From positions 1,054,715-1,118,714 of the forward strand of contig AP025250.1 in NCBI GenBank assembly GCA_020886235.1: 64,000 nt of DNA. The letters are read 5' to 3'. Of this stretch, positions 2,330 to 63,756 are shown piece after piece; the first letter of the stretch is position 1; every line of letters begins with the position of its first letter. The position numbers and the translations under genes were made by a program. The DNA is from Candidatus Dependentiae bacterium Noda2021. GTDB lineage: Bacteria; Babelota; Babeliae; Babelales; Vermiphilaceae. The notes under the pieces were generated by a model, which was not told the origin of the DNA, searched no databases, and saw only the letters and a program-made list of their open reading frames with translations.

Positions 2330-3988
2330 TTAGAAGGAGATACCTGCTTTACCCCACACCATCCAACGATTCATTGCGGTGTTATCAGGTGCTACTTCAT
2401 ACTGCCCGCCAAGACCTACAAACACTGGACGCTCGCGCTCATCCCAACGACGACCGATTGAACCGTAGAAGGTATGAGATACTACTGCAGGGTGAGCAGC
2501 TGACTCAAGGCAAAGATCTTCTGTTCTGATGATGTTATTTTCATACGCATCAACGGTGTCAGAAATTACATTTCCTGGGAAAATGCTATTGATCTGTACC
2601 AATTTACTTGTTTGTCCAAAGCCGTTGAGATATTTTAACGCAGCGGTTTCGATAAACGGACAATCTAGCTCAACACATTCTGCTTGACGTGCATAGAAGT
2701 TATAACCAACTTCTGCTTGCCACCAGCAACGGTCATACGCAATACCAAAGTTGAAATCACGTAAGAAGCCAGGTTTTACGCGTAGATCTTGTGTTAAAAT
2801 GTTAATACCGGGAGTATGCAAGGTAAGACCGGTTGCAAAGTCTACTGCGTTCGCTGCTAACAATGCTTGATCAGCGTTAGCGTAGAACTGCATGTAACGA
2901 CTCCATGGTTTGCCTTTTAAGTCAAATGAACGTCTTTCAGTTCTTTCAACAAAATACTCAAAAGACATATCTAAGTAGAACCATACGGTGCCTAAATCAC
3001 ATTTTGGACGCCAGATTTCAATACCAAAAGAAGTACCGGTTAATACACCTGGGTGATGGTTGTGACCAACCACCGGTTCAAATACATTGCGACCTCTTAC
3101 ACGGTTACCGGTTGGAGCTAACACACCAATAAATGAATCTAAGAAGCAGTGGTCAGATTTTACAATTTCATATCCAACACGCAACTCAAGATCACCCGCG
3201 CCGGTTTTATGATTACGGCTGCTGCAGTCGTCAATTCTACCATAGCACCAGCCTGGTTGTGCAAACGCTTCTGTAACACTGCCCACTGGGGTTAATGCAA
3301 CGGTAGGATCAATCGTGCATTGTGTGTTACATTGTGTGCTGCATGTATCAACATTACCACAAGAACCAACGTTGCCGCATGCACGAACTTGTGCAAGGCC
3401 TGGTTCAACTGGTGTTACGCCCGCGCCACCACCATTATCAATAATGTTTTCACAGATTCTGATTCTGTTTTTTACATTAGCGATTGGCAATGCAATGCTG
3501 TACCATAAGGCTCTGCCATCTTCTCTTTCATAGAAAGCTTGTTGCCATTGCAAACCGGCACCAACCCAGCTATGACGAGGCTCAAAGGTTACTTCACTCA
3601 AGAAAGTACCATTGACGGTATAAATGTTGAGGTAGTTTGCAAGTACATCAGTATCAGGTACTGCTGGTGTTGCTTGCTCACGTACAATTAACGTTGTTTT
3701 GCAATTAGGTAAGAAAAAACGCGCTAGGCGGTCATTTTTGGTTGATTTACCACCAAAGATCACTGCTTGGAATGCTCCATTTCCTTTGCAAGCGTCTCTG
3801 TCACTCGCGTGCATACGATCTCTAAATAACGTTACGCGAGAAGGAGATGTTGGTCCAAAAATTAATTCCCACTCGTCAGAAAAGAAAGTATGACTAGTTG
3901 CTTTGCAGTCACACTCGTCTCTTACTTGACGCGCCTGGAGCGCTGAAGCCATACTTAATATAAGCAGGCCAGACAAAAGCTTTTTCAT
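2330..3988 (-). CDS. Cysteine-rich outer-membrane beta-barrel protein (MOMP/porin-like)
   Basis: 552 aa. Signal peptide MKKLLSGLLILSMASALQA. Alternating amphipathic beta-strand character. Many Cys, including a CGNVGSCGNVDTCSTQCNTQC cluster. C-terminal aromatic terminus ...WGKAGISF is typical of OMP beta-barrels. Confidence 0.5.
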   Translation of the reverse strand: MKKLLSGLLILSMASALQARQVRDECDCKATSHTFFSDEWELIFGPTSPSRVTLFRDRMHASDRDACKGNGAFQAVIFGGKSTKNDRLARFFLPNCKTTLIVREQATPAVPDTDVLANYLNIYTVNGTFLSEVTFEPRHSWVGAGLQWQQAFYEREDGRALWYSIALPIANVKNRIRICENIIDNGGGAGVTPVEPGLAQVRACGNVGSCGNVDTCSTQCNTQCTIDPTVALTPVGSVTEAFAQPGWCYGRIDDCSSRNHKTGAGDLELRVGYEIVKSDHCFLDSFIGVLAPTGNRVRGRNVFEPVVGHNHHPGVLTGTSFGIEIWRPKCDLGTVWFYLDMSFEYFVERTERRSFDLKGKPWSRYMQFYANADQALLAANAVDFATGLTLHTPGINILTQDLRVKPGFLRDFNFGIAYDRCWWQAEVGYNFYARQAECVELDCPFIETAALKYLNGFGQTSKLVQINSIFPGNVISDTVDAYENNIIRTEDLCLESAAHPAVVSHTFYGSIGRRWDERERPVFVGLGGQYEVAPDNTAMNRWMVWGKAGISF

Positions 3989-7626: not shown

Positions 7627-9342
7627 ATGGTACCAAAAAGCATTGGGCAAACCCTCTTGGCTAGTGGGGCAATATCACATGAACAACTGCAAGAATGCCA
7701 GGCAGATGCACAAAAAAAAGGAAGCTCTGTTGAAGCCTGCCTTCTAGAAAAAAAATATATTACCCCTGAACAATGCGCTCAAGCCTATGCTACCTATTCA
7801 GGCATACCTTTTATTGAAAAAATTACCGAGCCCATGGCAGATCTTACCATTCTTGCCAAAGTACCCATCAAATTTTTACGTGATAACATCATAATTCCCC
7901 TGGTTATGGATGAAAATTTAGTCATCGTCACGTCCAACCCATTAAACTTTCAGCCTCTAGATGAACTCAATTTGCTCCTGGGCGGTCAACGCCATTATGC
8001 TGTGGCAACCCCTAAAACTATTATAGATGCAATTAATCGCTACTATCCCCTTGAGGGCACCAAGCAAATGATTGCACAACTTGAAGAAAGTGCTCAAGAA
8101 GACCTTGATGAATCAGTTGATTTTGGCGAAATCGAAGAAAAAGATATTGTAGCCATGGCCGCTGAAGCCCCTATCATAAAATTGGTAAACCATATTTTTT
8201 ATCAAGCAGTAAAACGAGGCGCTTCAGATATACACATTGAGCCCTATGAAAAAGAGCTGGTCGTTCGTTATCGTATTGATGGCGTTCTCTATACCGCCAT
8301 GAACCCACCAAAACGTATTCAAGGCGCATTGGTATCCCGCATAAAAATTATGGCTAATTTAAATATTGCAGAAAAGCGGGTTCCTCAGGATGGCCGTATT
8401 GATATTCGTGTAGCCGGAAGACCAATCGATATTCGTGTATCGGTACTACCCGTAGCCTTTGGTGAGCGCATAGTAATGCGTTTGCTTGATAAATCTCGCA
8501 CCTTTGGAAAACTACAAGATCTTGGCTTTAGCGAGCGCGATCTTAAAGTGATTATGAGTAGCATAACTAAGCCCAATGGCATTATTTACATAACGGGTCC
8601 TACCGGATCTGGTAAAACCAGTACCTTGTATGTAATTTTGGGTGAGCTTAATCAACCGGATGTAAATATAATCACCGTTGAAGACCCGGTTGAGTATCAA
8701 ATGGCAGGCATTGGCCAAGTACAAGTAAAAGATAAAATTGGCTTAGATTTTGCAGCAGCATTGCGCTCTATTTTGCGCCAAGATCCTGATATTATCATGA
8801 TTGGTGAAACCCGTGACCAAGAAACCGCCCAAATTGCTATCCAAGCAGCGCTAACCGGGCACTTGGTATTAAGTACCCTTCATACCAACAGTGCTCCAGC
8901 TACTATTACACGACTTCTTGATATGGGTATTGAGCCATTCTTAATTGCATCATCAATCATTTTATCGATGGCCCAACGATTAGTGCGAAAACTCTGCCCT
9001 ACCTGCAAAGAACCTTTTAAGCCCGATCTTGATCTATTAAAAAGTGTTGGGTTGACCGAAAAAGATGCGCAAGGCATAACTTTTTACAAACCAGTGGGGT
9101 GCGAAGAATGCAACCAAACTGGTTATAAAGGACGAATTGCAATTTTTGAGCTTATGCTTACCACTTCTGCTATCTCGCAACTTATTATGAGCCGCGCTGA
9201 TACGGCACAAATTCGCCGACAAGCTATTGCTGATGGCATGACGACGCTTCTTGATGACGGTATTAGAAAAATTAAAGAAGGCTTAACAACGATCGAAGAA
9301 GTATTAGCAGTAGCCGCACTTGAACAAGAAGTAGTTGAATAA
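7627..9342 (+). CDS. Type II secretion / type IV pilus assembly ATPase (GspE/PilB family)
   Basis: 571 aa. N-terminal T2SSE_N-like domain. Walker A GPTGSGKTST. Asp/His boxes. Tetracysteine zinc motif CPTCKEP...CEECNQTGYKGR. Confidence 0.85.
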   Translation: MVPKSIGQTLLASGAISHEQLQECQADAQKKGSSVEACLLEKKYITPEQCAQAYATYSGIPFIEKITEPMADLTILAKVPIKFLRDNIIIPLVMDENLVIVTSNPLNFQPLDELNLLLGGQRHYAVATPKTIIDAINRYYPLEGTKQMIAQLEESAQEDLDESVDFGEIEEKDIVAMAAEAPIIKLVNHIFYQAVKRGASDIHIEPYEKELVVRYRIDGVLYTAMNPPKRIQGALVSRIKIMANLNIAEKRVPQDGRIDIRVAGRPIDIRVSVLPVAFGERIVMRLLDKSRTFGKLQDLGFSERDLKVIMSSITKPNGIIYITGPTGSGKTSTLYVILGELNQPDVNIITVEDPVEYQMAGIGQVQVKDKIGLDFAAALRSILRQDPDIIMIGETRDQETAQIAIQAALTGHLVLSTLHTNSAPATITRLLDMGIEPFLIASSIILSMAQRLVRKLCPTCKEPFKPDLDLLKSVGLTEKDAQGITFYKPVGCEECNQTGYKGRIAIFELMLTTSAISQLIMSRADTAQIRRQAIADGMTTLLDDGIRKIKEGLTTIEEVLAVAALEQEVVE

Positions 9343-9370: not shown

Positions 9371-9967
9371 TCAACGATGTTTGAACTGGGGCTGAAAAAA
9401 ACGGTGGTAGCAAATACCTGATTTTTCATCAAAAAAATAGGTGAACGCACCTTTAATTTTCTTTTGATTATGATCAATAATGGTGCCCTGCATGGTCAAC
9501 GTAGTATCATATTGTTTATAATATTTGCGGCTTCGCTTTGTTCCTTGTGCTGCAAAATAAGGCAAATAATCATCAACCAATAATGAAAACGCATGCAATA
9601 GCACCGGATCGTTCCCAAAGCGCGTCGTTAATATATATTTTCGACTTCCGGGGATTAAATATCCTTGATCTTTTTTTGCGGCTTGAGGGTTTTCAAACCA
9701 TTGGCGCACATTGCGCGCATAGCTCAAGGGCAGCGCAATCCGATTGAGTTCATTGGTACTTTTAAATACTGTGAGCACCGCTTGATTACGGGTATCGTGT
9801 ATGATTACCTTATTAGATCGATCGTCTGTAGCCAACACAAATCCGTCGTGTGATTTTTTACTTAATTTAGTAGGAGTTAAAGACGGTTTAGGCAAGGACA
9901 CGGTTGCCTGCTCTGCGCTATGCACGGTGAAAACGCTTAAGAAGAAGAGTACATAATGCCAAACCAT
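9371..9967 (-). CDS. Secreted hypothetical protein, short paralogue sharing a C-terminal domain with 10082..11824
   Basis: The track ORF is 9371..10024. The internal Met at 9967 gives the signal peptide MVWHYVLFFLSVFTVHSA. The C-terminal ~110 aa (QGYLIPGSRKYILT..DPVLLHAFSLLVD..GAFTYFFDEKSGICYHRFFQPQ) is clearly homologous to the C-terminus of the next gene. Confidence 0.5.
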   Translation of the reverse strand: MVWHYVLFFLSVFTVHSAEQATVSLPKPSLTPTKLSKKSHDGFVLATDDRSNKVIIHDTRNQAVLTVFKSTNELNRIALPLSYARNVRQWFENPQAAKKDQGYLIPGSRKYILTTRFGNDPVLLHAFSLLVDDYLPYFAAQGTKRSRKYYKQYDTTLTMQGTIIDHNQKKIKGAFTYFFDEKSGICYHRFFQPQFKHR

Positions 9968-10081
9968 ATCATTTCCCCCTTCTTGCAGAATACGCAATTG
10001 CCTACCAACTATAATAGTAGGCAAATAGCATTACTCTACACAAGAGAATTGCTTGTCATCTAGGTTCCTGAGAACTCTGGC

Positions 10082-11824
10082 CTATTTATTTTTTTCTACA
10101 GCAGGAGCACTTAACGGAGGAAATGCTAAGTCATAATAACCGTTAGATGCAGGCGCAAAATGCCCGTTTTCATAAAACCCCTTTATAAGTTGACTGCCAA
10201 GCTGTGGCTCAAAAAAGCGGTGGTAAATATGACCGGTAGCACTATCCCGTAGGTAGGTAAAAATGCCAGTTATTTCTTTTGCATTTTTATCAGTAATACC
10301 GCCAGGAATTGTGTATAAGATATCCTGTTGATGTGCCGTGCGCCTACTTGGCGTCTCTGTTTGAGTAGCATAATCAGGGATAAATCTATCTACTAACGTG
10401 CTAAATGCGTGCAACAAAACCGGATCATACCCTGCTGTAGCCGTTAATGTGTGCTTACGGCTGCCTGGTACCAAATAACCTTGGTTGGCTTTTGCCAACT
10501 CGGGAGACTCAAACCATTCAACAATATTTTTGGTGTATGTAATTTCCGGCGCACTCAATTTTTTTTCAGTCGATTTAATCAACGTCAATTGAGCATGGTT
10601 AACCGCATCGTTAATAATTAATTTATTACTTTGCTCATTTTTAAAAGCTTGACTACCATAACTATCTGTTGCAAAAGGTTTTGCTTGAGGAGTTTTTACT
10701 TGATGTGCAGCCTCACGTTCTTTTGCCAGAGTTTTGATGCGTTCATTAATCAATGTGTTTATGAAGGCGTGATGACTTTGCAATTTGAGATACGTTTTAG
10801 CAAGAACAATAGGCGTTAATGTATCAGGCAACGCACGTGCAACACCCGGCAAGCTCAGTGATTTGTTTGTTTGAATATGTTTAACTATAATTTTTTTAAA
10901 TTCATTTGTTGTTTTAGTTTCTGTTATCAATGCATTTAGCAAGGCCATTACAGAATTATACAAATCTATATATTGGGATTCGATTTGCTGATAGCCAATG
11001 CAGAGCTGACGATTGTTTATCGCATCAGTAAGCAATTGTGAGTCTTTCAAATCTTGAAATTCTGTGTTTTTAAATTGTTTGTCGTTATTAGCCGCCCAGC
11101 GGAGAATAAATGGAACTAATCCAAACTGAACATTTTGGAAAATATCCGCGCTCACAAAGTTATAATAATTATCTTGGGCAATTTGATCATAATTTTTTGT
11201 GTAGGTCAGATGCGCCTCATCAACTAAATATTGCGCAAGTTCCCTACTATTTGGATCTTGGCTTGCACCCACTTTAATTGCAACACTAAATTTAGTCTCA
11301 GGAGTTGAGTTAATTTTAGTATCATTAAATAGATCATCTGCCGTATTAATACTCTTAATTGCTTCTTCAAGATCTGCAACAGTCATATTTTCTTTATAAA
11401 ATCCATACCATTTGCCATCTTTGATTACAAATTTGAATTCATCTGATTGAGGAGGATTACCCATATATCTTTTTAAAAACATGTAGGTTTTAAGATCCAC
11501 GCTACTCATAAATTTATGCTGGACGTACAACGAAAGCGCCATATTTTTTACTTTTGGCAAAAGCTGTTCTGATGATTTAATGTTAAACGATTGTAAAATA
11601 CCAGATCTCATTCTAGCCTGATCGTGCACAGGATATGTTTTTAAAGCAGATGATACGTCATCAAGCCATGAACGAAAACCAGGTGTCATTTCTATTTCTC
11701 TAAATTCAGGTTCTTTGACAATGTCAACTACATGCTCTTGGTTAGGAATATTTTTTTCCATACCTAACAAATTAAAACTGACTGTAGTACAAAGAACAAA
11801 AACAAACAGATTCATAGTATCCAA
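10082..11824 (-). CDS. Secreted hypothetical protein, long paralogue with the same C-terminal domain
   Basis: 580 aa. Signal-like N-terminus MDTMNLFVFVLCTTVSFNLLG. C-terminal QGYLVPGSRKHTLT..DPVLLHAFSTLVD..GIFTYLRDSATGHIYHRFFEPQ matches 9371..9967. I recognise no known domain. Confidence 0.5.
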   Translation of the reverse strand: MDTMNLFVFVLCTTVSFNLLGMEKNIPNQEHVVDIVKEPEFREIEMTPGFRSWLDDVSSALKTYPVHDQARMRSGILQSFNIKSSEQLLPKVKNMALSLYVQHKFMSSVDLKTYMFLKRYMGNPPQSDEFKFVIKDGKWYGFYKENMTVADLEEAIKSINTADDLFNDTKINSTPETKFSVAIKVGASQDPNSRELAQYLVDEAHLTYTKNYDQIAQDNYYNFVSADIFQNVQFGLVPFILRWAANNDKQFKNTEFQDLKDSQLLTDAINNRQLCIGYQQIESQYIDLYNSVMALLNALITETKTTNEFKKIIVKHIQTNKSLSLPGVARALPDTLTPIVLAKTYLKLQSHHAFINTLINERIKTLAKEREAAHQVKTPQAKPFATDSYGSQAFKNEQSNKLIINDAVNHAQLTLIKSTEKKLSAPEITYTKNIVEWFESPELAKANQGYLVPGSRKHTLTATAGYDPVLLHAFSTLVDRFIPDYATQTETPSRRTAHQQDILYTIPGGITDKNAKEITGIFTYLRDSATGHIYHRFFEPQLGSQLIKGFYENGHFAPASNGYYDLAFPPLSAPAVEKNK

Positions 11825-11965
11825 TTAGATATATTTGCAACGTAAGATTTTGCCACAACATAAAATATAAATTGTAACTTTTTCTAATAGAAAAGGCGAT
11901 GCATTTTGTACTACAAAAAAACCCCGTAGAATACTCTACGGGGTACTGTTTGCTGACAAACTACG

Positions 11966-13078
11966 TTATGCCAATTCTACATCCATTGGGGTGCAGTCTG
12001 TGCATTTTTCAAAATAAAAATTATGCCATTCTTGGTCATACCCTTTAAAGCCATGCTTGGTCATAACATCATGTAGAATATGGCGATTTCTTTGAGCCAT
12101 CATTGAACAATCAGTGCTGTCACAATGAGCGCGAGCGCTAAACTCGTTAAAGTCTGATGGCATCTCACAATCTTCGCCGGTCATTAAATCAACCATAGTT
12201 ACGTTAACCGCAAGACCACAGCTATGATAATCAGCGTGCGCAGGATTCACCATATAGCACTCATTGGGACATGCTTTCCATAATTTTTGCTGCATTGACA
12301 TGGGACGATACGCATCCCATACTTTTAAGCATAATCCCATCATTTCTAATTCTTTTTGTACTGCATCTAATGCCATTGCAACTTCTGTGCGCACAAAGCA
12401 TTTGTCACCACACATAGCTTGTTTCATGCAATTGTTATCAGATGCATAACGCATTTCGCACATTATTGCAGGATTAACTTCATTTACTTCCATCATGTCA
12501 TAATCGCGGCAGCAGCTGTTTGTGTAACAAGGACGTGGCGCAGTAAAACATGGGTTACAACAACTTGGGCGTGGTTTGCAACAGCCTTTATCAACCATTT
12601 CTTCTTGTGCCATTTCCATGTCGCCTTGACCTTCTCTGCAGCAGTTATTGGTATAGCAAGGACGTGGTGCGGTGAAGCATGGATTGCAGCAACTTGGACG
12701 AGGCTTGCAGCAGCCTTTATCGGTCATTTCTTCTTGTGCCGTTTCCATGTCGCCTTGACCTTCTCTGCAGCAGCTGTTGGTGTAGCAAGGACGTGGGGCA
12801 GTAGAGCATGGATTGCAGCAACTTGGACGGGGCTTGCAGCAACCTTTGTCTGTCATTTCTTCTTGTGCCATTTCCATTTCGCCTTGACCATCTCTGCAGC
12901 AGTTATTCGTGTAGCAAGGACGTGGTGCGGTAAAGCATGGATTACAGCAACTTGGACGAGGCTTGCAGCAACCTTTGTCTGTCATTTCTTCTTGCATTGC
13001 ATCTTGTGCGTGCACCAATGATTGGTTGTGCAAGCACATAACACCCAACAAAATGTAAATGCTTAATCGTTTTGTCAT
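11966..13078 (-). CDS. Secreted protein: four Cys-rich tandem repeats fused to a VanX-like (peptidase M15D, D-Ala-D-Ala dipeptidase family) domain
   Basis: Signal peptide MTKRLSIYILLGVMCLHNQSLVHA. Four repeats of ~41 aa (QEEMTDKGCCKPRPSCCNPCFTAPRPCYTNNCCRDGQGEMEMA). The C-terminal domain aligns to VanX: LKVWDAYRP (VanX LLLWDGYRP), HADYHSCGLAVNVTMVDLMTGE (VanX SSHSRGSAIDLTLYRLDTGE), GYDQEWHNFYF (VanX SLEWWHYVL). Confidence 0.7.
   Translation of the reverse strand: MTKRLSIYILLGVMCLHNQSLVHAQDAMQEEMTDKGCCKPRPSCCNPCFTAPRPCYTNNCCRDGQGEMEMAQEEMTDKGCCKPRPSCCNPCSTAPRPCYTNSCCREGQGDMETAQEEMTDKGCCKPRPSCCNPCFTAPRPCYTNNCCREGQGDMEMAQEEMVDKGCCKPRPSCCNPCFTAPRPCYTNSCCRDYDMMEVNEVNPAIMCEMRYASDNNCMKQAMCGDKCFVRTEVAMALDAVQKELEMMGLCLKVWDAYRPMSMQQKLWKACPNECYMVNPAHADYHSCGLAVNVTMVDLMTGEDCEMPSDFNEFSARAHCDSTDCSMMAQRNRHILHDVMTKHGFKGYDQEWHNFYFEKCTDCTPMDVELA
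12515..12997. repeat. Four near-identical direct tandem repeats, ~123 nt, in-frame coding repeats inside CDS 11966..13078
   Basis: The DNA unit ...cagcagttattggtatagcaaggacgtggtgcggtgaagcatggattgcagcaacttggacgaggcttgcagcagcctttatcggtcatttcttcttgtgcc... recurs four times with a few substitutions. Confidence 0.8.
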
Positions 13079-13190
13079 GACACTCCTTTAATAAGGGTTT
13101 TAAATTTCTACTATGCACCATAATACGCGAAGTGTGCATGATTCAATCAATTCTTTTTTTATGAATTATAAACGTGTAACAATGCATACT

Positions 13191-13556
13191 ATGAAGTTAC
13201 GCAATAATCAAAAAGACGGATTTACTCTTATAGAGTGCTTATTAGTAATTAGCTTACTGAGCGGACTGAGCATGTTGGTTTTTTCTAGTTTTGAATGGTA
13301 TGAAAAACAACTAGAATTAATAGAGGTAGAACAACTTTATTTATCCTGCATGCACATGCAGCAACATGCTCAATTGACCAATTGCAGTCAAGAGCTTAAG
13401 ATAGATAACATCTGTCACTGTTATAATTTTTTACACAATTTCAAATCGCTGCAAAAACTCACATTTGGATCGTTTAACAATAACCCCGCATACGCGATGG
13501 GATGCCGAGCACATTCAAACATAATACCATTATTTTTTATCCAACCGGCATTGTAA
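13191..13556 (+). CDS. Prepilin-type N-terminal cleavage/methylation domain protein (type IV pilin or T2SS pseudopilin)
   Basis: The track ORF is 13113..13556. Start at Met 13191 gives the leader MKLRNNQKDG followed by FTLIECLLVISLLSGL, the classic G|FTLIE prepilin peptidase site with Glu+5. Confidence 0.7.
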   Translation: MKLRNNQKDGFTLIECLLVISLLSGLSMLVFSSFEWYEKQLELIEVEQLYLSCMHMQQHAQLTNCSQELKIDNICHCYNFLHNFKSLQKLTFGSFNNNPAYAMGCRAHSNIIPLFFIQPAL

Positions 13557-16831: not shown

Positions 16832-17566
16832 ATGTATTTTCTTCTCACTATTATTTGGCTCTTACTCGGAACCCAACAAACAATATCGGCTGAAAAAACA
16901 TGGGGCAAAACGCATTTTATTGTAAAAGACAATACACTCATTTGTCCTGCTAAAAAACCAAGTGGACAAACCGGGCCACTTAATGAATCTTGTTTGATAC
17001 ATGACGGATGCGTCAAACATGCGTTATTTTCCGCCCATGACGATATACAAAAAATGCTTATTGATTTAATTAATAAAGAACAAAAATCTATTAAAATAGC
17101 TATTTTTGCTTTTACTGATATGGAAATTGCAAAAGCACTTATGAGCGCACATGCGCGCGGTGTAAGCGTGCGTATTATATGTGATTGCTCATGCTTACGC
17201 GCAAAATTTAGCAAAATATCATTACTTCAAAAAGAAGGCATCTCCGTTTTTGTCTACACGCCAGCACAAGAACATCTGTTTATTAATGATCTGATGCATC
17301 ATAAATTTGTTATCTTTGAAAAAAATATGATGAATAAATCATTGCTCTGGACCGGCTCGTTTAACTTTACCAAATCTGCAAATACTAAAAACCAAGAAAA
17401 TGTATTGATTATTGATGATCAGTATCTCATTACGCTTTACAACGGTCATTTTGATACTCTGGCAAAAACAATTACCAAGACTCAAAAAAATATAGCGCTT
17501 GCGCAGCGTAAAGAACGAAAAGCTGCACGGGCATTAAAGCAGAGCAAAAAACAAATAATCACGTAA
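16832..17566 (+). CDS. Phospholipase D / Nuc-like single-HKD-domain protein, secreted
   Basis: Signal peptide MYFLLTIIWLLLGTQQTISA. PLD-superfamily HKD-like motif HHKFVIFEKN...LWTGSFNFT. Confidence 0.55.
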   Translation: MYFLLTIIWLLLGTQQTISAEKTWGKTHFIVKDNTLICPAKKPSGQTGPLNESCLIHDGCVKHALFSAHDDIQKMLIDLINKEQKSIKIAIFAFTDMEIAKALMSAHARGVSVRIICDCSCLRAKFSKISLLQKEGISVFVYTPAQEHLFINDLMHHKFVIFEKNMMNKSLLWTGSFNFTKSANTKNQENVLIIDDQYLITLYNGHFDTLAKTITKTQKNIALAQRKERKAARALKQSKKQIIT

Positions 17567-20270: not shown

Positions 20271-20858
20271 ATGATCTATTCTCTCTTATTAAATTTTCTT
20301 GCTTTTTTTGCGTGTTGTAACGTTACAGCATCAATGAAAAGCCCTAAAGCCCCCATTGAGCCGGTGATCAAACACACGCTCACTCACAACACGTATTTAT
20401 TACAATTGGATTTAGAAAATAACCCATCATGCGTTAATACACAAGAACCTAATTTTGTCACCAGCATGGCAACACACTTGTACCACGATAAAACTATTAA
20501 CAAAGTGCGCCATGCATTATATACACCCATTTTTTACGCAATACGTGATGGTAATGACACAAGTTTTGACTTATTAATAGAACACAAAGATATCGATATA
20601 ACGATTACTGATTCGCATGGCAATACGATTTTAAACAATGCCGTTGAGGCCGCTTTTCGAACAAAAAATATATCCTACGCAGAAAAAATTCTCAGAAAAC
20701 CTGAAGCAAACGCCTTGATTCACCAAAAAAATTGTCATTGTGCCTCAGCGCTGGATCATGTAAATACTTTAATTAAGCAAACAACAATGCAGTACTACGA
20801 TCGTGAAACGATGGAATCCTTGTTAGCCTTAAAAAACCTTTTTGAGTTTTACAGCTAG
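20271..20858 (+). CDS. Secreted ankyrin-repeat protein
   Basis: Signal peptide. Ankyrin-like units TPIFYAIRDGNDTSFDLLIEHKDIDITITDSHGNTILNNAVEA. Confidence 0.55.
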   Translation: MIYSLLLNFLAFFACCNVTASMKSPKAPIEPVIKHTLTHNTYLLQLDLENNPSCVNTQEPNFVTSMATHLYHDKTINKVRHALYTPIFYAIRDGNDTSFDLLIEHKDIDITITDSHGNTILNNAVEAAFRTKNISYAEKILRKPEANALIHQKNCHCASALDHVNTLIKQTTMQYYDRETMESLLALKNLFEFYS

Positions 20859-20889
20859 TCGTCTTGTATTAAACCTTACTGGGATGTAT

Positions 20890-21669
20890 ATGAAAAATAA
20901 TTTGATGTTTGTACTCTGTTTAATAACTTCTATCTGGCTTCAACCAATACGCGCGATGATATGGTCAGACGTTGAAAAAGATTACGCAGCATGGGCACAA
21001 CAAATGTCAAACGTATACCAACCTAATGAGCTACTTAAAGGTGCATTCTTAAATGATCATCTTCATGTTCAAGCTTTTTGCCATGAAAAACATGGCAATA
21101 TAAATCAGCAAGAACCGCGGTTTGGCAAGTTAACTCATCTTTTAGAGCCTAAACCTAACGTGCGTGACCTGTGGGACATCCCTGAAGCCGCAAAAAAAAG
21201 TCACAACCCCTTTGGAATACCGGCCATTACAGAATTGGCATTATTTAGCCCTGAAATTACCAATAAGTTCTGTCCACGCATATCGGGCATGACAGCCCTT
21301 CATTATTGTGTAATATATGGGTTAAAAGTAAGCATAAAAACCTTGCTTGGCGAGCCTACCATTGATCCAAACTTACAAGATCTGCCAGGAGGCAATACCG
21401 CTCTGCACTATGCCGTAGCTACAGCCAATGAAGACATAGTCGGTCTCATTGCCCGCCATTATAAATGTGATCCATATATTGCCAACAAAAAAAGTCAAAC
21501 ACCGCTCATGATGGCCTATGAGCTTGCAGATTCCCTAAAAAGCTTCTCGGGCCCTTACACCATGAAGCTTAAAAAAATAATTTGTATACTTGAAAAAAGC
21601 ATGGATAAATCTCAGACCTGGATTGCCAACAATCAACCCATTATCATAATACCCATGTCTAATGCGTAA
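20890..21669 (+). CDS. Secreted ankyrin-repeat protein
   Basis: The track ORF is 20842..21669. The Met at 20890 gives the signal peptide MKNNLMFVLCLITSIWLQPIRA. Ankyrin units GMTALHYCVIYGLKVSIKTLL...GNTALHYAVATANEDIVGLIARHY. Confidence 0.6.
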   Translation: MKNNLMFVLCLITSIWLQPIRAMIWSDVEKDYAAWAQQMSNVYQPNELLKGAFLNDHLHVQAFCHEKHGNINQQEPRFGKLTHLLEPKPNVRDLWDIPEAAKKSHNPFGIPAITELALFSPEITNKFCPRISGMTALHYCVIYGLKVSIKTLLGEPTIDPNLQDLPGGNTALHYAVATANEDIVGLIARHYKCDPYIANKKSQTPLMMAYELADSLKSFSGPYTMKLKKIICILEKSMDKSQTWIANNQPIIIIPMSNA

Positions 21670-47455: not shown

Positions 47456-48430
47456 TTATAAATTTTCTTGAAATAATTTCAAGCACGCCGCATTTTTTTT
47501 GACCAAATCCTGAGGTAGTTGCTGACTCTTATTTCTTTTTGGCCGAGCTCCTGCTGCAAGCAGTACATTAATTTGCTCTGCATGCCCATAGCGTGCCGCT
47601 TCGTGCAATGGCGTATCACCATCATTGTTTTCAGCGTCCACATTGCTACCAGCATCAATAATGACCTGAGTGGCATTTAGATTATTTTCTTTGATACTTG
47701 CTGATAATAATTGCGCGTATCCAAAAACCAAAGGATTTTTAGCAATTGCTGCTACATAATTTTTGAAAACCATTTCTTGTGTTGATCGTGGCGCAAATTC
47801 TTGTAACAGCATGTGTCGTGCAATACCAATTAGCCAACCCGGATGCACTGACTCAACGATCTGACACCAAAATTCAGTCGCTTTATCCTGCAGCGATAAC
47901 AATAAATTACGCGGATCTGCGCCCATCTCAAGCGCATGGGTAATAATAGTCTCGGGAACTGTATTATGGTCAACCATCGGTTGATAACATTCTATGCGCG
48001 CGCAATGCTCAAGATACGATTTTGCATTAACCAAACCATTTTTTTGCAAAGAATTTAGCAAGGTAAGTTTTCTTAAATAATAAATGGGAGGAAAAATTTG
48101 ATTAACAGGTGACAGGGAATGATGCAAAATAAACTCAATTATACGATTAGTGTATTCTTGGCCTTTTTTGTGATTAATATCTTTAATACCTTTAATCATA
48201 GTATCAGTGTCAAACAGTGATTCTGACCCATTAATACTATTTCTATTTTTTCTAACACCCTCGGGAGAATACAATTGGCTAATGCTTATTATTTTTTGAG
48301 AAATGCGCAATGCTTTTATTTCAAACTCAGTGGTAGTTGTTAATTCTTTACCTTTATGTGTAATTTCTGCACTGTGTGTAGAAAAAAAACTTATAACAAA
48401 AATATATATTACACAGCATCTCTTGATCAT
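47456..48430 (-). CDS. Secreted ankyrin-repeat protein
   Basis: Signal-like N-terminus. C-terminal ankyrin units NDGDTPLHEAARYGHAEQINVLLAAGA. The ...ALEMGADPRNLL segment is shared with the upstream paralogue. Confidence 0.5.
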   Translation of the reverse strand: MIKRCCVIYIFVISFFSTHSAEITHKGKELTTTTEFEIKALRISQKIISISQLYSPEGVRKNRNSINGSESLFDTDTMIKGIKDINHKKGQEYTNRIIEFILHHSLSPVNQIFPPIYYLRKLTLLNSLQKNGLVNAKSYLEHCARIECYQPMVDHNTVPETIITHALEMGADPRNLLLSLQDKATEFWCQIVESVHPGWLIGIARHMLLQEFAPRSTQEMVFKNYVAAIAKNPLVFGYAQLLSASIKENNLNATQVIIDAGSNVDAENNDGDTPLHEAARYGHAEQINVLLAAGARPKRNKSQQLPQDLVKKNAACLKLFQENL

Positions 48431-58455: not shown

Positions 58456-59562
58456 ATGAAACAACCATTTTGGCTTTTAAACAGCGCGCTTCTTTTCCTT
58501 TTTATTTCCGTAATGGGTTTTATTCTTTTTTCTTCAGTTTCTGTGCCTGAGCGCGAAGATATTACTACTATAGAGTACGTAAAACCAATTACCACAACTT
58601 CTTCGCAAGTTAATATCAGCAAAATTTATGAAAATGATTTATTTAATACGGTTGTACCGGAAGTTCCTTCAGAACAAGCTCCCTCTTTTAATGTAGTCGC
58701 ACCTGAGCCACCTGCACCTCAACCTATTTACAAACCTGAAGAGCAAAAGCCACAATTTCAAGACCCGCTCCCCATTACCTTGCGCGGCATTATTGTAATT
58801 GTGCAAGATGATACACGTAATCGTGCAATCATCGCCGAAAATGCCACTGGTCAAGAGTCAAGTTATCAAATTGGAGACCGCATAGAGGATGCGCAGCTCA
58901 TTCGGATTATGAGTAATAAAATTATTTTCCTCCGATCTAATGGACAGCAAGAAGTATTGTACTTAAAAGAGCGCGATGCACAGTCGGACCCTGCCTTTAC
59001 CTTCTTGGATGATTGGAGCAAGGTTATACGCTCGGTTTCTTACAACCATTACATTGTAAACATTGCTGAGTTTGCTTCTCGCGTACACAGCCTTGCCCAG
59101 CTGCTTGATATGCTTGATCTAACGGGGGTGTATAGCCAAGGATCAAGTATGGGATGCCGCATAGGAGCAGTAAATCCGGGCTCTCTTGGTTACGCGCTTG
59201 GATTAGAGCGTGGCGATATTGTAACTTCGATTAATGGGGTACCAGCAACGACCACTGCAAACCGATTTGCCATTTATCAGGATTTAACAGCTCTCAAGAC
59301 AAACAGAACAATTCCCGTTACCATAATACGTGGTGGCTCTGAGTTAACTATAAATTATGAATTGCGAGAAACCTTAGAAAGACAATCAACACGAAACAAT
59401 ACACGAAGAACCGCAGACCAAATAACTCAAGAGCAATTAAAACGATTAGAACAACGAGAAACATTTGCACCAACTATTGAAGAATTAAGGGCCAGAGAAA
59501 GAAAAAATATGTTGGAAAAAGGAAGACGGCCAATACAAAACATGTTATCTAATGTAGAGTAA
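58456..59562 (+). CDS. GspC-like secretion-system protein (N-terminal TM, Pro-rich linker, C-terminal PDZ)
   Basis: TM LLNSALLFLFISVMGFILF. Pro-rich stretch. PDZ-like GCRIGAVNPGSLGYALGLERGDIVTSINGV. Immediately upstream of the secretin. Confidence 0.45.
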   Translation: MKQPFWLLNSALLFLFISVMGFILFSSVSVPEREDITTIEYVKPITTTSSQVNISKIYENDLFNTVVPEVPSEQAPSFNVVAPEPPAPQPIYKPEEQKPQFQDPLPITLRGIIVIVQDDTRNRAIIAENATGQESSYQIGDRIEDAQLIRIMSNKIIFLRSNGQQEVLYLKERDAQSDPAFTFLDDWSKVIRSVSYNHYIVNIAEFASRVHSLAQLLDMLDLTGVYSQGSSMGCRIGAVNPGSLGYALGLERGDIVTSINGVPATTTANRFAIYQDLTALKTNRTIPVTIIRGGSELTINYELRETLERQSTRNNTRRTADQITQEQLKRLEQRETFAPTIEELRARERKNMLEKGRRPIQNMLSNVE

Positions 59563-59567
59563 AAAAT

Positions 59568-62140
59568 ATGAATTTATATCGTATTCCTTTCGCGTGGTTT
59601 TTATTAATTTTGCTATCAATCACACCTTCATGTGGTAAAAAAAAGCCATGCGCTCCTACGCCTGAATGCTTTAAAAAACTTGAATCAAAACCACAACCGG
59701 TAGAAAAAGTATTAGAAAACGAACCGGTAAAACCAGTAATACCTGCAGAAAATCCTGTTTTTGCAGAGCCTGCACCCATGCCGGTAGAAGATGCAGAACC
59801 CGTAAGACCTCTTAATGATCAAGCGCTCAGAGAAAGTCCCACAGAGGCAACCGATCGCCTGATGCAAACTAAAGAGTTGCCACTTGAAGAACCACACATT
59901 GAGCTGCCGCGTCCTGAAGATTTAATTGAATTCTATTTTGAAAATGCTGACCTTGAACAGCTGGTAAAACAAATAGAAGATATTTACGACATCACCTTTA
60001 TCACCGATGACACCGTAACCCCTCCGGCTCAAGGTGCCGTTGTGCGACCAATTAAAGGTAATAAAATATCTTTTAAAACAGAAAAACCATTAACAAAAAA
60101 AGCTGCGTGGAATTTATTTAATACATTTCTCTCGATTGCAGGGCTAGCTGTTGTACCAGAACCTACTCCCCGTGTAATGCGAATTACGACGACTGAAAAT
60201 GCGCGAAGATCTCCTTTGCCTGCTTTTATTGGTGTACCTTTTGAGACATTGCCCGACAGCGATGAAATGGTACGATTTGTTTATTTTTACGACAACATAT
60301 CAACTGACACGCTGCGCTCATTAATAGGCGATGATAATAAGCCGGGATTACGTAGCCCTACATCCGCCGTCGTCGTATTGCAAGAATTAAAAGCTCTGGT
60401 AATAACCGACAGAGCTTACAACATTAAAAGTTTAATGACCATCATAAAAGAGCTTGATAAAGCAAATGCACCACAGGCAATGTCCGTTTTAAAATTAACG
60501 CGTGCTGATGCAATGGATGTCGCAAAACTGTATAAACAATTAAACCCTGAAGAAGATCGTCAGAGCGTTACCGCCCGTCTATTTCCTGGACGAAGAACAC
60601 CAACAGGACAGTATTTCCCTGAAAATACTAAGATTTTTGCAGAGCCGCGTACCAACTCATTAATTATCTTAGGAGCTGCGGAAGGCATTAAAAAAGTTGA
60701 AGACTTTATCAGCCGCTTTATCGACGTTGAGCTTACTCAACCGTATTCGCCGATTCACGTTATCAAAATGCGTTACGCTGATGCACGAACTATTGCAAAC
60801 ATCATGAATAGCGTGACAACTCTTGGGCAAAATAGCCCCAAGGTGTCTACGGCTCAGTTCGTGATGGCGATAAGTTTTTTAAACCCATGACCTTTGTGCC
60901 CGAGGCAGAGGGCAACCAACTGATTGTTCGTGCTGACTATGAAGACTTTTTAAAAGTTAAAGATATTGTGGCAATGCTTGATGCGCCTCAACGACAAGTT
61001 GCTGTTGAAGTATTAATATTACTTGTTGATCTTGTTAACACGAAAGAGCTTGGCGCACAGATTAGAACGCGAGTACCCGGCGTTGAAGGCCTGACTGGTT
61101 ACGATGTTAATTTTCAGACATCTGGATTGCGTGCCGGCGGTGCTGCACAAGGGATTGTTCAAAATACCTTTGGGCCTGGGGCTAATCGCTTACTCGGCAA
61201 TCTTCTTTCGCTGGTAAATTTTGCACCAGCTGGTAACACCGTTATCTCATTGGGTGATAATTTAAACGTATGGGCTATATTACAACTGTTACAAACAGTT
61301 AGTAACACTCAAGTAGTCTCTAACCCTTTTGTAATTGCAACTAATAAAACTAAGGCTACCGTAACGCTGGGAGAAATTCGTCGCTTAATCACCAGTCAAA
61401 TTATTAGTAACGCAACAGCAAACACATTTGGTGATGAGTCAGCTAAACTAGAAATCAACGTCACACCACAAATAAACTCCGATGGTATGATCGTACTTGA
61501 TCTTGGCATTGAATTATCAAACTTCATCACCGCTGCTGATCCAGTTAACGCAGCCCGTATTACCAGAAAAATCAACACCACCACAATTTCTGCAAACCGA
61601 GAGGTAATAGCACTGGGTGGATTGATACAAAATACAACGACCAATAATATTAGTAAGGTTCCTATATTAGGGGACATTCCAGGTCTTGGATGGCTCTTTA
61701 AAAATAGACGCCAGGCAGAGCGTAAACAAGATTTACTCATTTTAATTTCTACCACTATTATTGAACCGTTTGATCGTGGAACCGTTTCGCAATTTACTCA
61801 AAAGCATATCACTGAGTATGAGTTGACCATGGATGACATGCGTGATGTTTCACAAAAACGTGATCCAGTACAACAACTGTTCTTCCAACCAAGTCGCCCA
61901 TCAACCGAGCGTGCTGCGGATGACTTCATATTCCAGCGTAAAAACAATAGTTGTCCTATGCCATCAGAACCACCAATACCTACGGTAGGACCCAGAGAAG
62001 CATTAGATTTGGCTCACACAACGATACAACAACCTGAACTTGGTGTTCAGCCACGTTCACGATCACTCGCACACAGTACATCCAAAAAATCACTGGCTGA
62101 CTTATTTGCACAAGAACAGCAAGAAGGAGTACAGTCATGA
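59568..62140 (+). pseudogene. Secretin (GspD/PilQ family) split by a frameshift into ORFs 59568..60890 and 60887..62140
   Basis: ORF 1 has the signal/lipoprotein-like N-terminus and N0-N3 domains. ORF 2 begins mid-N3 (NQLIVRADYEDFLKVKDIVAMLD) and carries the secretin C-domain (VVSNPFVIATNKTKATV...VPILGDIPGLGWLFKNRR). The two frames meet at a T6 homopolymer (60875-60880) with an ATGA overlap. Confidence 0.7.
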
Positions 62141-63756
62141 TACGAGAGCTGTTTATTCCACAAGAAGTAAAAAATTACTACATTGTGCCCACGCGCATTA
62201 TTGGGTTTGATATTGGCAAGACTCAGGTAACGGCAACACAAGTGCTTGCTAAAGGGCGCAAGCTATTTGTTGAAAAATGGTATCAAGAACAACTTGATAC
62301 TGATGTTGCAGCAGATTATGATGCACGAGTAACTGCCGCAATTAAAAAAATTATTGATTCTGTTGATTCAAAATACCAAGCAATCCATAGCTCAATTAGC
62401 AATGCACAAGCAATTTTTAAAGAACTTAAATTTCCTTTTACTGAGCCAGAAATGATCAGTCGTGTGGTGCATCATGAGATTGAGCCGCTATTACCTTTTC
62501 CCATAGAAGATGCAGTTATTGATTTTGTGATCACTAAAATAAATAAAGAAGAAAAGAGTGCAGAAGTCTTGATTGCTGCGGTGCAAAAACAACACATCGC
62601 TCATCATCTGGCACTTTTTGAAGCTGCAGGTGTCGATCCTGATCGCGTAACCATTGATTTATTTGCATTGTATGGTTTGTATCATGAATTGTATAACACC
62701 AGTCATGGTGACACAATCATCGCAGAAATAGGTATCCAATCAACGCGCATGGCTTACATTCAACACGGCCAATTACGATCAATGCGTACACTGCCCAAAG
62801 GAATTTTTGATGTTGCGCGTATTGCAAGTGAAGAACTTGATATATCATTTTCAGACGCACTTAACCACATCATGCGGTATGGTCTTGAAAAGCATGCAAC
62901 TAACGATAATTATACCCAAGCTATAACTAAAGGATTTGCATCACTTGCTCAAGATATGCAATTTACCATACATTCATTTACATCACATAATCCCGCTGAA
63001 TTAGATTCGGTCTTGTTCTTTGGACAAACAGTAAACATAAAAGGAATGTTGGATTATTTCTCGCAACAATTTCAATTACCAGCTACGGTATTTGATTTTG
63101 CCACTATTAAAAAAACACATTTAGTATTGCCGAAAAAAAACAACTTTCCTCAAGAAAATATTGCAAGTTTAGCAGTTGCATTGCCTAGTACAATTACTGG
63201 CTCATTTAATTTACGCAAAAAAGAATTTGCAACGGAATCTCCGTGGTTAATTTCACGACAGCTTCTTACCAGCGCACTATTAGCCCTTGGCATCATTGGG
63301 TCTTTGCTGGCCTACAATTTCTTAACGGTAAGAACGCTACGCAACGAAGCGTATAGTTCTCAAGAAGAAGTAATTGAAACATTGCGCGAGCGGTTCCCAA
63401 AAATACCAGATGATATCAATGACCTGGACGATATTATCGCAGAAGCTCAACGAGCGGTTAATGACGAGGAAAAGCGCTTTGCGGTACTCACTACGGCTCG
63501 CACATCATATTTAAAGTACTTGCTTGAATTAACTGATAAAATTGACAAACAAGCGCTCGATTTGGATCTTGAAAAAATTACCATCTCATCAGATCGCATC
63601 TTAACTCTCCAAGGAAAAGTTAAAGATTACGAAGCATTGAAAAATCTCGAGCGAGATCTAAAAAAATCAAAGCTCTTTAAATTAATCGAAGAAGGCAAAG
63701 AGCCACAATTTACCATTGTTATCCGTTTACTAGGTAACGGTCAGGAGAAATCATGA
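62137..63756 (+). CDS. PilM-PilN-like (GspL-like) fusion: cytoplasmic actin-like ATPase-fold domain + TM + periplasmic coiled-coil domain
   Basis: N-terminus IIGFDIGKTQVTATQV is PilM/FtsA-like. TM SALLALGIIGSLLAYNFL is around residue 375. C-terminal coiled-coil region follows. Confidence 0.5.
   Translation: MIRELFIPQEVKNYYIVPTRIIGFDIGKTQVTATQVLAKGRKLFVEKWYQEQLDTDVAADYDARVTAAIKKIIDSVDSKYQAIHSSISNAQAIFKELKFPFTEPEMISRVVHHEIEPLLPFPIEDAVIDFVITKINKEEKSAEVLIAAVQKQHIAHHLALFEAAGVDPDRVTIDLFALYGLYHELYNTSHGDTIIAEIGIQSTRMAYIQHGQLRSMRTLPKGIFDVARIASEELDISFSDALNHIMRYGLEKHATNDNYTQAITKGFASLAQDMQFTIHSFTSHNPAELDSVLFFGQTVNIKGMLDYFSQQFQLPATVFDFATIKKTHLVLPKKNNFPQENIASLAVALPSTITGSFNLRKKEFATESPWLISRQLLTSALLALGIIGSLLAYNFLTVRTLRNEAYSSQEEVIETLRERFPKIPDDINDLDDIIAEAQRAVNDEEKRFAVLTTARTSYLKYLLELTDKIDKQALDLDLEKITISSDRILTLQGKVKDYEALKNLERDLKKSKLFKLIEEGKEPQFTIVIRLLGNGQEKS

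Follow-up and report, generated by a model that had tools for sequence, protein, structure and literature searches.

The gene and its Cys-rich repeats

The gene described here lies in a 64,000-nucleotide stretch of DNA (the window; contig AP025250.1, positions 1,054,715 to 1,118,714) from Candidatus Dependentiae bacterium Noda2021, and encodes a protein in which a predicted signal peptide, an array of Cys-rich tandem repeats and a C-terminal domain of the VanX type follow one another. Noda2021 is an obligate parasite of Vermamoeba, and 1.25 Gb of PacBio RS II subreads, assembled with HGAP3, gave its 1.22-Mb genome as one contig (PMC8812299). The complete coding sequence (11966..13078, minus strand, stop codon within the coordinates) specifies 370 amino acids (aa) and matches Noda2021_11100 at 100% over its full length, a protein annotated as 'hypothetical protein'. 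A Shine-Dalgarno-like AAAGGAG can be read at 13083..13089 (minus strand), 4 nt upstream of the ATG, and a terminator scan placed an intrinsic-terminator-like hairpin at 11921..11944 on the same strand, 22 nt past the stop codon; with its 10-bp stem containing 6 GC pairs and the TTTTTTT that follows, this putative terminator would close the transcription unit ahead of the next gene (10082..11824). The protein is not described in the announcement of the strain's genome (PMC8812299), and our search of the literature found no paper on this family, whose members carry the database labels 'hypothetical protein', 'M15 family metallopeptidase' and 'D-alanyl-D-alanine dipeptidase'.

The first 24 residues (MTKRLSIYILLGVMCLHNQSLVHA, then QD; 13007..13078, minus strand) are predicted from sequence and hydropathy to form a Sec signal peptide, a heuristic call on which the export and localisation of the protein also depend. 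Its features are an n-region with K3 and R4, a hydrophobic stretch from residue 5 to 16 and a VHA sequence directly before the QD, and the same pattern is kept in the orthologues. A lipoprotein was considered and rejected, since there is no lipobox and the conserved Cys15 is preceded by M or F. The order of signal peptide, Cys-rich repeats and VanX-like domain had already been recognised in an initial reading of the sequence without database searches (the sequence-only reading), and is borne out by the open reading frame (ORF), the repeat finder, Pfam and the predicted fold.

When 1.84 billion representative proteins were searched exhaustively with phmmer, 3,426 M15 relatives were retrieved. 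P0002 (E = 3e-113) and P0007 (E = 3e-83) stand out as the only close ones, with the match after them at E = 3e-42. P0007 is a shortened gene call of a 328-aa ORF at locus L003, while a scan of genome contigs yielded a single locus, L002, a protein near-identical to P0002 from a metagenome-assembled genome (MAG). A scan of metagenome contigs for further family members gave none. From these searches the gene appears confined to three closely related Dependentiae lineages: that of the window, that of P0002 (loci L001 and L002) and that of L003.

Tandem Repeats Finder reports a single array at 12509..12994 (period 129 nt, 3.8 copies, 88% matches), and comparison of units and codons delimits four units spanning aa 30-192 (12503..12991, minus strand). 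The first three, all of 43 aa, occupy aa 30-72 (12863..12991), 73-115 (12734..12862) and 116-158 (12605..12733); the fourth (aa 159-192, 12503..12604) is partial and matches over about 34 residues before the M15 domain begins. The sequence-only reading had proposed four near-identical repeats of 41 aa (123 nt). The array of four stands, but the period was a miscount, since the unit it quoted, correctly and with the right number of 8 Cys, is itself 43 residues long (129 nt), and the last copy is incomplete. Each unit consists of a basic core of 29 aa, KGCCKPRPSCCNPC[FS]TAPRPCYTN[NS]CCR[DE], whose 8 Cys (28%) include CC and CxxC motifs, and an acidic, Met-rich linker of 14 aa, GQG[ED]ME[MT]AQEEM[TV]D. 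The linkers contain 3 Met each (EMEM here, MMM in an orthologue), and the alternation of cores (+4) with linkers (-5) runs through a mature protein with a pI of 4.9. The array is not an assembly artefact: the assembly is based on long reads, the identical sequence came from independent runs, and orthologues in independent assemblies carry arrays of 2 or 3 units.

The near-identity of the copies holds for the protein and not for the DNA, in which 5-16 of the 29 core codons differ between copies, nearly all synonymously. Pairwise comparison of cores 1-3 gives 5-7 synonymous against 1-3 non-synonymous differences (dS 0.36-0.56), and core 4 differs from the other three by 13-16 synonymous and 2-3 non-synonymous changes over the 29 codons (pS 0.73-0.91, saturated). 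Cores 1 and 2 of L003 encode identical amino-acid sequences although 13 of 32 codons differ. The neutral probability of so few replacements among the copies lies between 3e-3 and 4e-9, with a core dN of 0.01-0.045 and a dN/dS of ~0.03-0.1 for the repeats. Synonymous sites are thus moderately to fully saturated and replacements nearly absent, which argues for long-term purifying selection rather than recent duplication or gene conversion, and the recent expansion or concerted evolution suggested by the sequence-only reading does not agree with these distances. By these estimates the repeats are old and selectively maintained, and purifying selection appears to hold all core residues, Cys and non-Cys alike. 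The module differs among the lineages: the window protein has 4 units with 8 Cys each, L003 has 3 with 9 each, and L001/L002 have 2 with 11 each. Its amplification would therefore have come after the lineages split.

The repeat unit resembles nothing that we could find. Neither the repeat region, nor a single unit, nor the orthologue's repeats gave a relevant Pfam match at E values up to 10; a unit profile run against 5.8 billion proteins left 2 word-sharing candidates, neither of which scored; the best match of a profile search of the PDB was a conotoxin at a non-significant E = 5.3; and in the full-length phmmer search the repeat part was matched by P0002 only. The comparison with Cys-rich protein families that the sequence-only reading had recommended likewise matched no profile. 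Judged by these searches, the unit belongs to no described family and has no detectable relative outside the gene studied here. AlphaFold2 modelled the repeats at a predicted local distance difference test score (pLDDT) of 37-51 in the full-length protein and a single unit, given six aligned units, at 49, values that are uninformative and do not constitute evidence of disorder.

The VanX-type domain and its zinc site

The C-terminal half (aa 192-370; 11969..12505, minus strand) matches Pfam Peptidase_M15 (PF01427) over aa 194-354 with E = 1.4e-25 and 90.7 bits (cut-off 27), so that the M15 relationship expected by the sequence-only reading is strongly supported. Scores against the narrower NCBIfam models DdpX (NF007557, 120 bits) and VanX (NF033115, 64.8 bits) stay under their respective cut-offs of 176 and 320. 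VanX (1r44) was the sole match in a sequence search of the PDB, at 27% identity over the domain. AlphaFold2, with an alignment of 92 sequences, modelled aa 192-370 at pLDDT 84-98, and Foldseek with this domain model again returned VanX 1r44 first (E = 1.2e-14, target-normalised TM 0.77), followed by other members of the LAS group, namely LdcB, VanY/VanXY, the Ply500 endolysin and Hedgehog N-domains. By homology and modelled fold the domain is thus a member of Peptidase_M15 (VanX-DdpX), but by its catalytic features it would not be a VanX/DdpX enzyme.

In VanX, the Zn ligands are His116, Asp123 and His184, and Glu181 serves as the base (bioRxiv 10.1101/2023.10.13.562161). Of the 156 sequences in the alignment (VanX and 155 retrieved homologues), 145 have the full H-D-E-H tetrad, but gap-free alignments give H-N-E-N for the window protein, H-D-Q-Y for P0002/L001/L002 and N-S-Q-Y for P0007/L003. 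The sole canonical Zn ligand left in the window protein, one of three, is His285 (VanX His116; codon 12224..12226, minus strand), which is Asn in the L003 lineage. Asn292 (12203..12205, minus strand) stands in place of Asp123 and is Asp in L001/L002 and Ser in L003; this replacement, in LAVNVT, had been noticed in the sequence-only reading and is confirmed by the alignments. That reading had also described the EWWH block as shifted. It is indeed altered, to Glu350-Trp351-His352-Asn353 (12020..12031, minus strand) at the position of VanX Glu181-Trp-Trp-His184, by the substitutions W183 to H and H184 to N with no insertion or deletion. The position of His184 is thus occupied by Asn in the window and by Tyr in the sister lineages, and His352, one residue earlier, is invariant in the clade. 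Among the other VanX/DdpX blocks reported in that reading, WDAYRP is present, but the 'SxH' of SxHxxGxA reads DYH. Glu350 (Glu181) and Arg258 (Arg71) are present in the window protein, Glu181 having become Gln in both sister lineages, and all three lineages carry Asn at the position of VanX D142, at which Asp is found in 148 of the 156 aligned sequences. The equivalents of VanX Tyr21, Asp68 and Arg71 are kept, and some ligand binding may therefore persist.

Domain identity from one lineage to another is 72-78% (dN 0.14-0.18, dS of at least 1.5, dN/dS ~0.08), and the domain is better conserved than the neighbouring TamB (56-57% identical, dN 0.37); architecture and gene order are common to all three lineages. 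A pseudogene was ruled out by the intact frame together with the low dN/dS of domain and repeats. Within the clade, 118 of 176 domain positions do not vary, yet every one of the four tetrad positions does, an outcome with a chance probability of ~0.012; by this comparison the former catalytic residues are among the least constrained in the domain. Since the sister lineages lost different members of the tetrad, the function that the three lineages have in common is unlikely to be canonical Zn-dependent hydrolysis, and catalysis has very probably been lost across the whole clade. The working D-Ala-D-Ala dipeptidase envisaged in the sequence-only reading is difficult to reconcile with the single remaining Zn ligand and with the losses in the sister lineages. 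The combination of a lost Zn catalytic site with strong selection indicates, with high confidence, an exported pseudo-peptidase that has a conserved non-hydrolytic role, and the database labels that name a metallopeptidase or a dipeptidase should not be taken as statements of enzymatic function here.

Compared with VanX and DdpX (PF01427; MEROPS M15D), the window protein keeps the WDAYRP (Asp68/Arg71), RYA (Tyr21) and MPSDF motifs and has a signal peptide, as do many DdpX-type relatives. It departs from them in the replacement of Asp123, His184 and Asp142, to which the orthologues add His116 and Glu181, in a domain content of ~14x the Cys and ~6x the Met of canonical domains, and in its fusion to a novel Cys-rich repeat array. 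EnvC and NlpD, which are degenerate LytM (M23) factors, are likewise non-catalytic. The closest conceptual precedent is found among non-catalytic proteins of the LAS fold: the N-domain of Drosophila Hedgehog has kept a zinc DD-peptidase fold under selection while losing its Zn-coordinating and catalytic residues (PMC6027127), and Hedgehog N-domains figure among the Foldseek matches. Apart from the fold, such proteins have no sequence relationship to ours; Hedgehog, EnvC and NlpD act as ligands or amidase activators, and neither a general replacement of residues by Cys, Met and His nor Cys-rich repeats are seen in them. The gene studied here would show how, in nature, the fold of a zinc peptidase of the cell wall was retired from catalysis and rebuilt for other chemistry while still under selection, the impact of which is moderate, this being a tiny family of three lineages.

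Two other M15 homologues from the phmmer search, P0033 and P0116, have signal-peptide-like N-termini and degenerate catalytic residues (H116N, D68N and R71C in P0033; R71Q and E181D in P0116). Some of the Cys substitutions of the clade studied here recur in them, P0033 having NNC for NNF and P0116 having HTCG for HxRG. VanX-like proteins that are enriched in Cys and no longer catalytic may occur beyond this clade.

Enrichment in Cys, Met and His and its possible functions

The enrichment in sulfur amino acids reaches beyond the repeats into the M15 domain, a feature overlooked in the sequence-only reading. Cys makes up 12.4% and Met 8.4% of the whole protein; the medians for the 60 large ORFs of the window are 1.3% and 2.2%, and no other large ORF in this set exceeds 4.1% Cys or 6.0% Met. 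The domain alone has 13 Cys, 19 Met and 7 His; its Cys content is 7.5% and its Met content 9.8%, where the medians of 89 canonical homologues are 0.5% and 1.6%. Thirty-two positions are invariant in the clade with a residue that is rare (<5%) in canonical homologues, and 21 of these 32 have become Met (11), Cys (7) or His (3); about two thirds of the lineage-specific substitutions in the domain are thus to one of these three residues. Cys replaces residues that are invariant or nearly so in the 89 canonical homologues: Phe at 217 (88/89), Tyr at 223 (89/89), the Arg of HxRG at 287 (89/89), Arg at 319 (86/89), Trp at 359 (77/89), Tyr at 362 (78/89) and Leu at 304 (78/89). Met has taken the place of core Leu and Val and, at other positions, of canonical Lys, Arg, Glu or Ala; the latter, being positions charged in canonical homologues, are probably exposed. 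New motifs have appeared in the domain, C359-x2-C362, H318-C319-x4-C324 and H333-x2-H336-x2-M339, and C287 adjoins the old Zn site. The clade keeps ten domain Cys throughout (217, 223, 227, 270, 287, 304, 319, 324, 359 and 362); C207 and C250 have been lost jointly in L003, and the total number of Cys in the mature protein is odd in all lineages.

It is possible, and this is the explanation that we tentatively put forward, that the protein is a periplasmic or surface binder of soft metals, a 'sponge' or buffer most likely for Cu(I), with Zn or Cd as other candidates; we slightly favour such metal binding over a role as a disulfide-cross-linked envelope protein. A joint enrichment in Cys, Met and His, together with acidic Met-rich linkers, is what would be expected of a soft-metal-ion binder, and the variation in the number of Cys per unit (8, 9 or 11 by lineage), with odd totals, is more easily reconciled with metal-thiolate sites than with a single invariable pattern of disulfides. 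The function would then be carried by sulfur and imidazole side chains, the dead VanX fold serving as a stable scaffold for new candidate Cys/His/Met sites (359/362, 318/319/324, 333/336/339 and C287), and buffering of metals could shield this obligate parasite of amoebae from attack by host metals or oxidants. Hao and colleagues reportedly proposed, in 2015, survival in amoebae as a selection pressure behind bacterial Cu/Zn resistance. Csp1, a metal store to which our protein can be compared, differs from it in being a four-helix bundle. The Cys-dense cores, Met-rich acidic linkers, HxxHxxM motif, predicted export and lack of a predicted repeat fold recall metallothioneins, SilE, PcoE and Csp1, although there is no homology to any of them and SilE and PcoE use Met and His as ligands, not Cys. 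SilE is an intrinsically disordered periplasmic silver-binding 'molecular sponge' (PMC5008109).

Several observations weigh against metal binding. The cores are rich in Pro, include Phe and Tyr and lack His, which is atypical of metallothioneins, and their non-Cys residues are nearly as strictly conserved as the Cys (see the dN values above), which is also unlike metallothioneins. Thiols of exported proteins are usually oxidised to disulfides. No match was obtained to the Pfam profiles of metallothioneins, SilE/PcoE or Csp at E values up to 10, and no cop, cus, czc, msr or dsb genes were found within the 64-kb window. Lastly, a sink for oxidants would explain the enrichment in Cys and Met equally well.

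The main competitor, somewhat less probable in our estimation though still a serious candidate, is an envelope protein in which the oxidised Cys/Pro-rich cores are cross-linked by disulfides to one another and to Cys-bearing outer-membrane proteins; a disulfide-cross-linked envelope had already been suggested in the sequence-only reading and is plausible. Cross-linking would take place upon exit from the reducing host cell and toughen the infectious form outside it, a part played in chlamydial elementary bodies by OmcA, OmcB and MOMP, and the dead VanX domain might grip the stem peptides of peptidoglycan, for which the retained Tyr21, Asp68 and Arg71 speak. In agreement with this, the protein is predicted to be exported and is extremely rich in Cys, the organism passes in turn through a reducing host and the external environment, and OmcA and OmcB are likewise exported and very rich in Cys, their bacterium too being obligately intracellular with an infectious stage outside the host. 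The CC-x-P-x-x-S-CC motifs call to mind those of keratin-associated proteins and of chlamydial OmcA, whose CC/PC-type spacing is similar to that of the cores. The odd Cys count of the mature protein in all lineages would leave at least one thiol free for an intermolecular bond, C207 and C250 disappear together in L003 as a disulfide pair would, and a conserved signal-peptide protein of 552 aa, encoded 8 kb away (2330..3988), ends in Phe and has 18 Cys and a CGNVGSCGNVDTCSTQCNTQC loop. Moreover, Babeliales are without LPS (PMC4776705), all four known outer-membrane tethers are absent from ten Dependentiae genomes (bioRxiv 10.1101/2021.05.31.446380), cells of a related species remained infectious after four years outside hosts (PMC6561590), and the chlamydial precedent is documented (PMC6752827). 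However, a role of this kind leaves unexplained why Met and His are enriched as well, K, R or E having changed to Met at some canonically charged positions, and unlike OmcA and OmcB the protein is Met-rich and fused to an M15 domain, has no lipobox or other membrane anchor, and matches neither the Chlam_OMP3 and Chlam_OMP6 nor the keratin profiles of Pfam (E up to 10). A family limited to three close lineages would not be a phylum-wide solution, and the former substrate pocket has been heavily remodelled (D142N, R287C, F217C, Y223C), which weakens the case for peptidoglycan binding. The likeness to keratin-associated high-sulfur proteins and to the CC-C-C-CC frameworks of conotoxins, in CC[KR]P..SCC and in Cys, Pro and basic content, is convergent at most, these proteins being eukaryotic and unrelated. 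A more elaborate form of the idea, in which a dead VanX domain that still recognises peptidoglycan and a Cys stalk disulfide-linked to a partner such as the 552-aa protein would together make a redox-switchable tether between outer membrane and wall, or a chlamydia-like complex, as an envelope architecture peculiar to these Dependentiae, seems to us rather unlikely.

We consider it equally doubtful that the protein is a sacrificial sink, in which exposed Met and Cys, with a smaller part for His, would scavenge HOCl and reactive oxygen species of the amoebal phagosome in the periplasm; it would then be similar to the periplasmic Met-rich peptide MrpX of Azospira. The shift to Cys, Met and His fits this function as it fits metal binding, the protein is predicted to be exported, and its own Shine-Dalgarno motif and terminator suggest independent and possibly abundant expression; yet a simple scavenger would require neither the conservation of non-sulfur residues across a 29-aa core nor a folded domain at such a low dN/dS, and the 64-kb window contains no MsrP/Q or thiol reductase gene nearby. 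A peptidase that is still active through a re-engineered metal site, with His285, Asn292 and His352 (or nearby Cys) as ligands, Glu350 as base and D-Ala-D-Ala or a related cell-wall or host peptide as substrate, strikes us as less probable again. The modelled fold is intact, the window protein has the equivalents of His116, Glu181, Arg71, Asp68 and Tyr21, and His352 is invariant in the clade, but the L003 orthologue is devoid of any tetrad residue (NSQY) and those of L001/L002 lack Glu181 and His184, all of them under equal purifying selection and with matching architecture and synteny; in addition, residues invariant in the 89 canonical enzymes have been replaced (the Arg of HxRG, D142, F217, Y223). 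Least credible of all is a polyprotein carrier that would release small basic Cys-knot peptides of the defensin or conotoxin type, acting for instance on host mitochondria, or else a store of sulfur amino acids for a dormant stage. Identical basic cores of 29 aa set between acidic spacers, the full conservation of the cores, a copy number of 2 to 4, the conotoxin as the sole, non-significant resemblance in the PDB (E = 5.3), the type II secretion genes of the window and the altered mitochondria around Noda2021 cells can all be cited for the peptide carrier; but there are no recognisable processing sites, and the conserved, sulfur-enriched M15 domain would be left without explanation. We know of no bacterial homologue of, or precedent for, such a polyprotein. 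A putatively exported and abundant-looking protein with 21% sulfur amino acids is a candidate for defence against metals and oxidants in amoebae or for hardening of the envelope, in a phylum represented by only four isolates.

Neighbouring genes and related contigs

The gene order shared by the three lineages runs TamB, a pseudopilin-like gene, the gene studied here, an unknown protein of 535-580 aa, another of ~200 aa and a GspE/PilB-type ATPase, and continues with BamD, UPF0102, CdsA, HisRS and the Cys-bearing protein of ~550 aa. We rejected any functional inference from an operon, since the gene has its own terminator and its neighbours are syntenic merely through genome relatedness. The ancestral state at the locus does not lend itself to inference either, the closest canonical homologue, P0003, being in an unrelated neighbourhood and P0011 on a contig of 1.2 kb.

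The 552-aa signal-peptide protein (2330..3988 on the minus strand of the window; 19157..20803 in L001) has no Pfam hit. Besides the loop mentioned above, its 18 Cys (3.3%) are accompanied by a ...WGKAGISF terminus that gives it the appearance of an outer-membrane beta-barrel, and no other protein of the neighbourhood is as well conserved (81% identity to its orthologue). We regard it as a candidate for a major outer-membrane protein and as a possible disulfide partner of the protein studied here. Directly downstream of our gene, past the terminator, are the two unknown proteins, of 580 aa with a signal-peptide-like start (10082..11824, minus strand) and of 217 aa (9371..10024, minus strand); neither has a Pfam hit and both keep their position in all three lineages.

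On the opposite strand, the ORF list contains a stop-free ORF of 200 aa (12419..13021, plus strand) facing the Cys repeats, which we rejected as a gene, as it is a by-product of TGC/GCA-rich codons. The equivalent artefact is annotated as a gene in L003 (5631..5978, minus strand), and gene callers on related contigs annotate the antisense ORF and shorten the true gene to 165-176 aa from an internal Met. Short-read contigs with an L003-type orthologue stop inside the repeat array (L005 1..237, L006 1..235), where 235-237 nt of upstream sequence match before the contig ends, and in one MAG at NCBI the gene is broken into pieces of 140, 56 and 122 aa and has a frameshift in repeat 3. The repeat array evidently disrupts short-read and MAG assemblies.

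Components resembling those of type II secretion systems or type IV pili were identified on the plus strand from the ORF list and profiles (7627..9342, 13113..13556 and 58456..63756). The set comprises a GspE/PilB ATPase, a pseudopilin-like gene with a GFTLIECL motif that is divergent from the gene studied here, a GspC-like protein (PDZ), proteins with secretin N-domains and a PilM/GspL-like protein, and is a possible route of export past the periplasm. The window also encodes signal-peptide-bearing ankyrin-repeat proteins and a secreted PLD-like protein (20271..21669, plus; 47456..48430, minus; 16832..17566, plus), which are typical of the host-interaction repertoire of Dependentiae. Finally, a 256-aa ORF at 34180..34950 (minus strand) matches Bac_rhodopsin (PF01036) with a Pfam E value of 1.2e-37, and a microbial rhodopsin is unexpected in an obligate intracellular parasite of amoebae with minimal metabolism.

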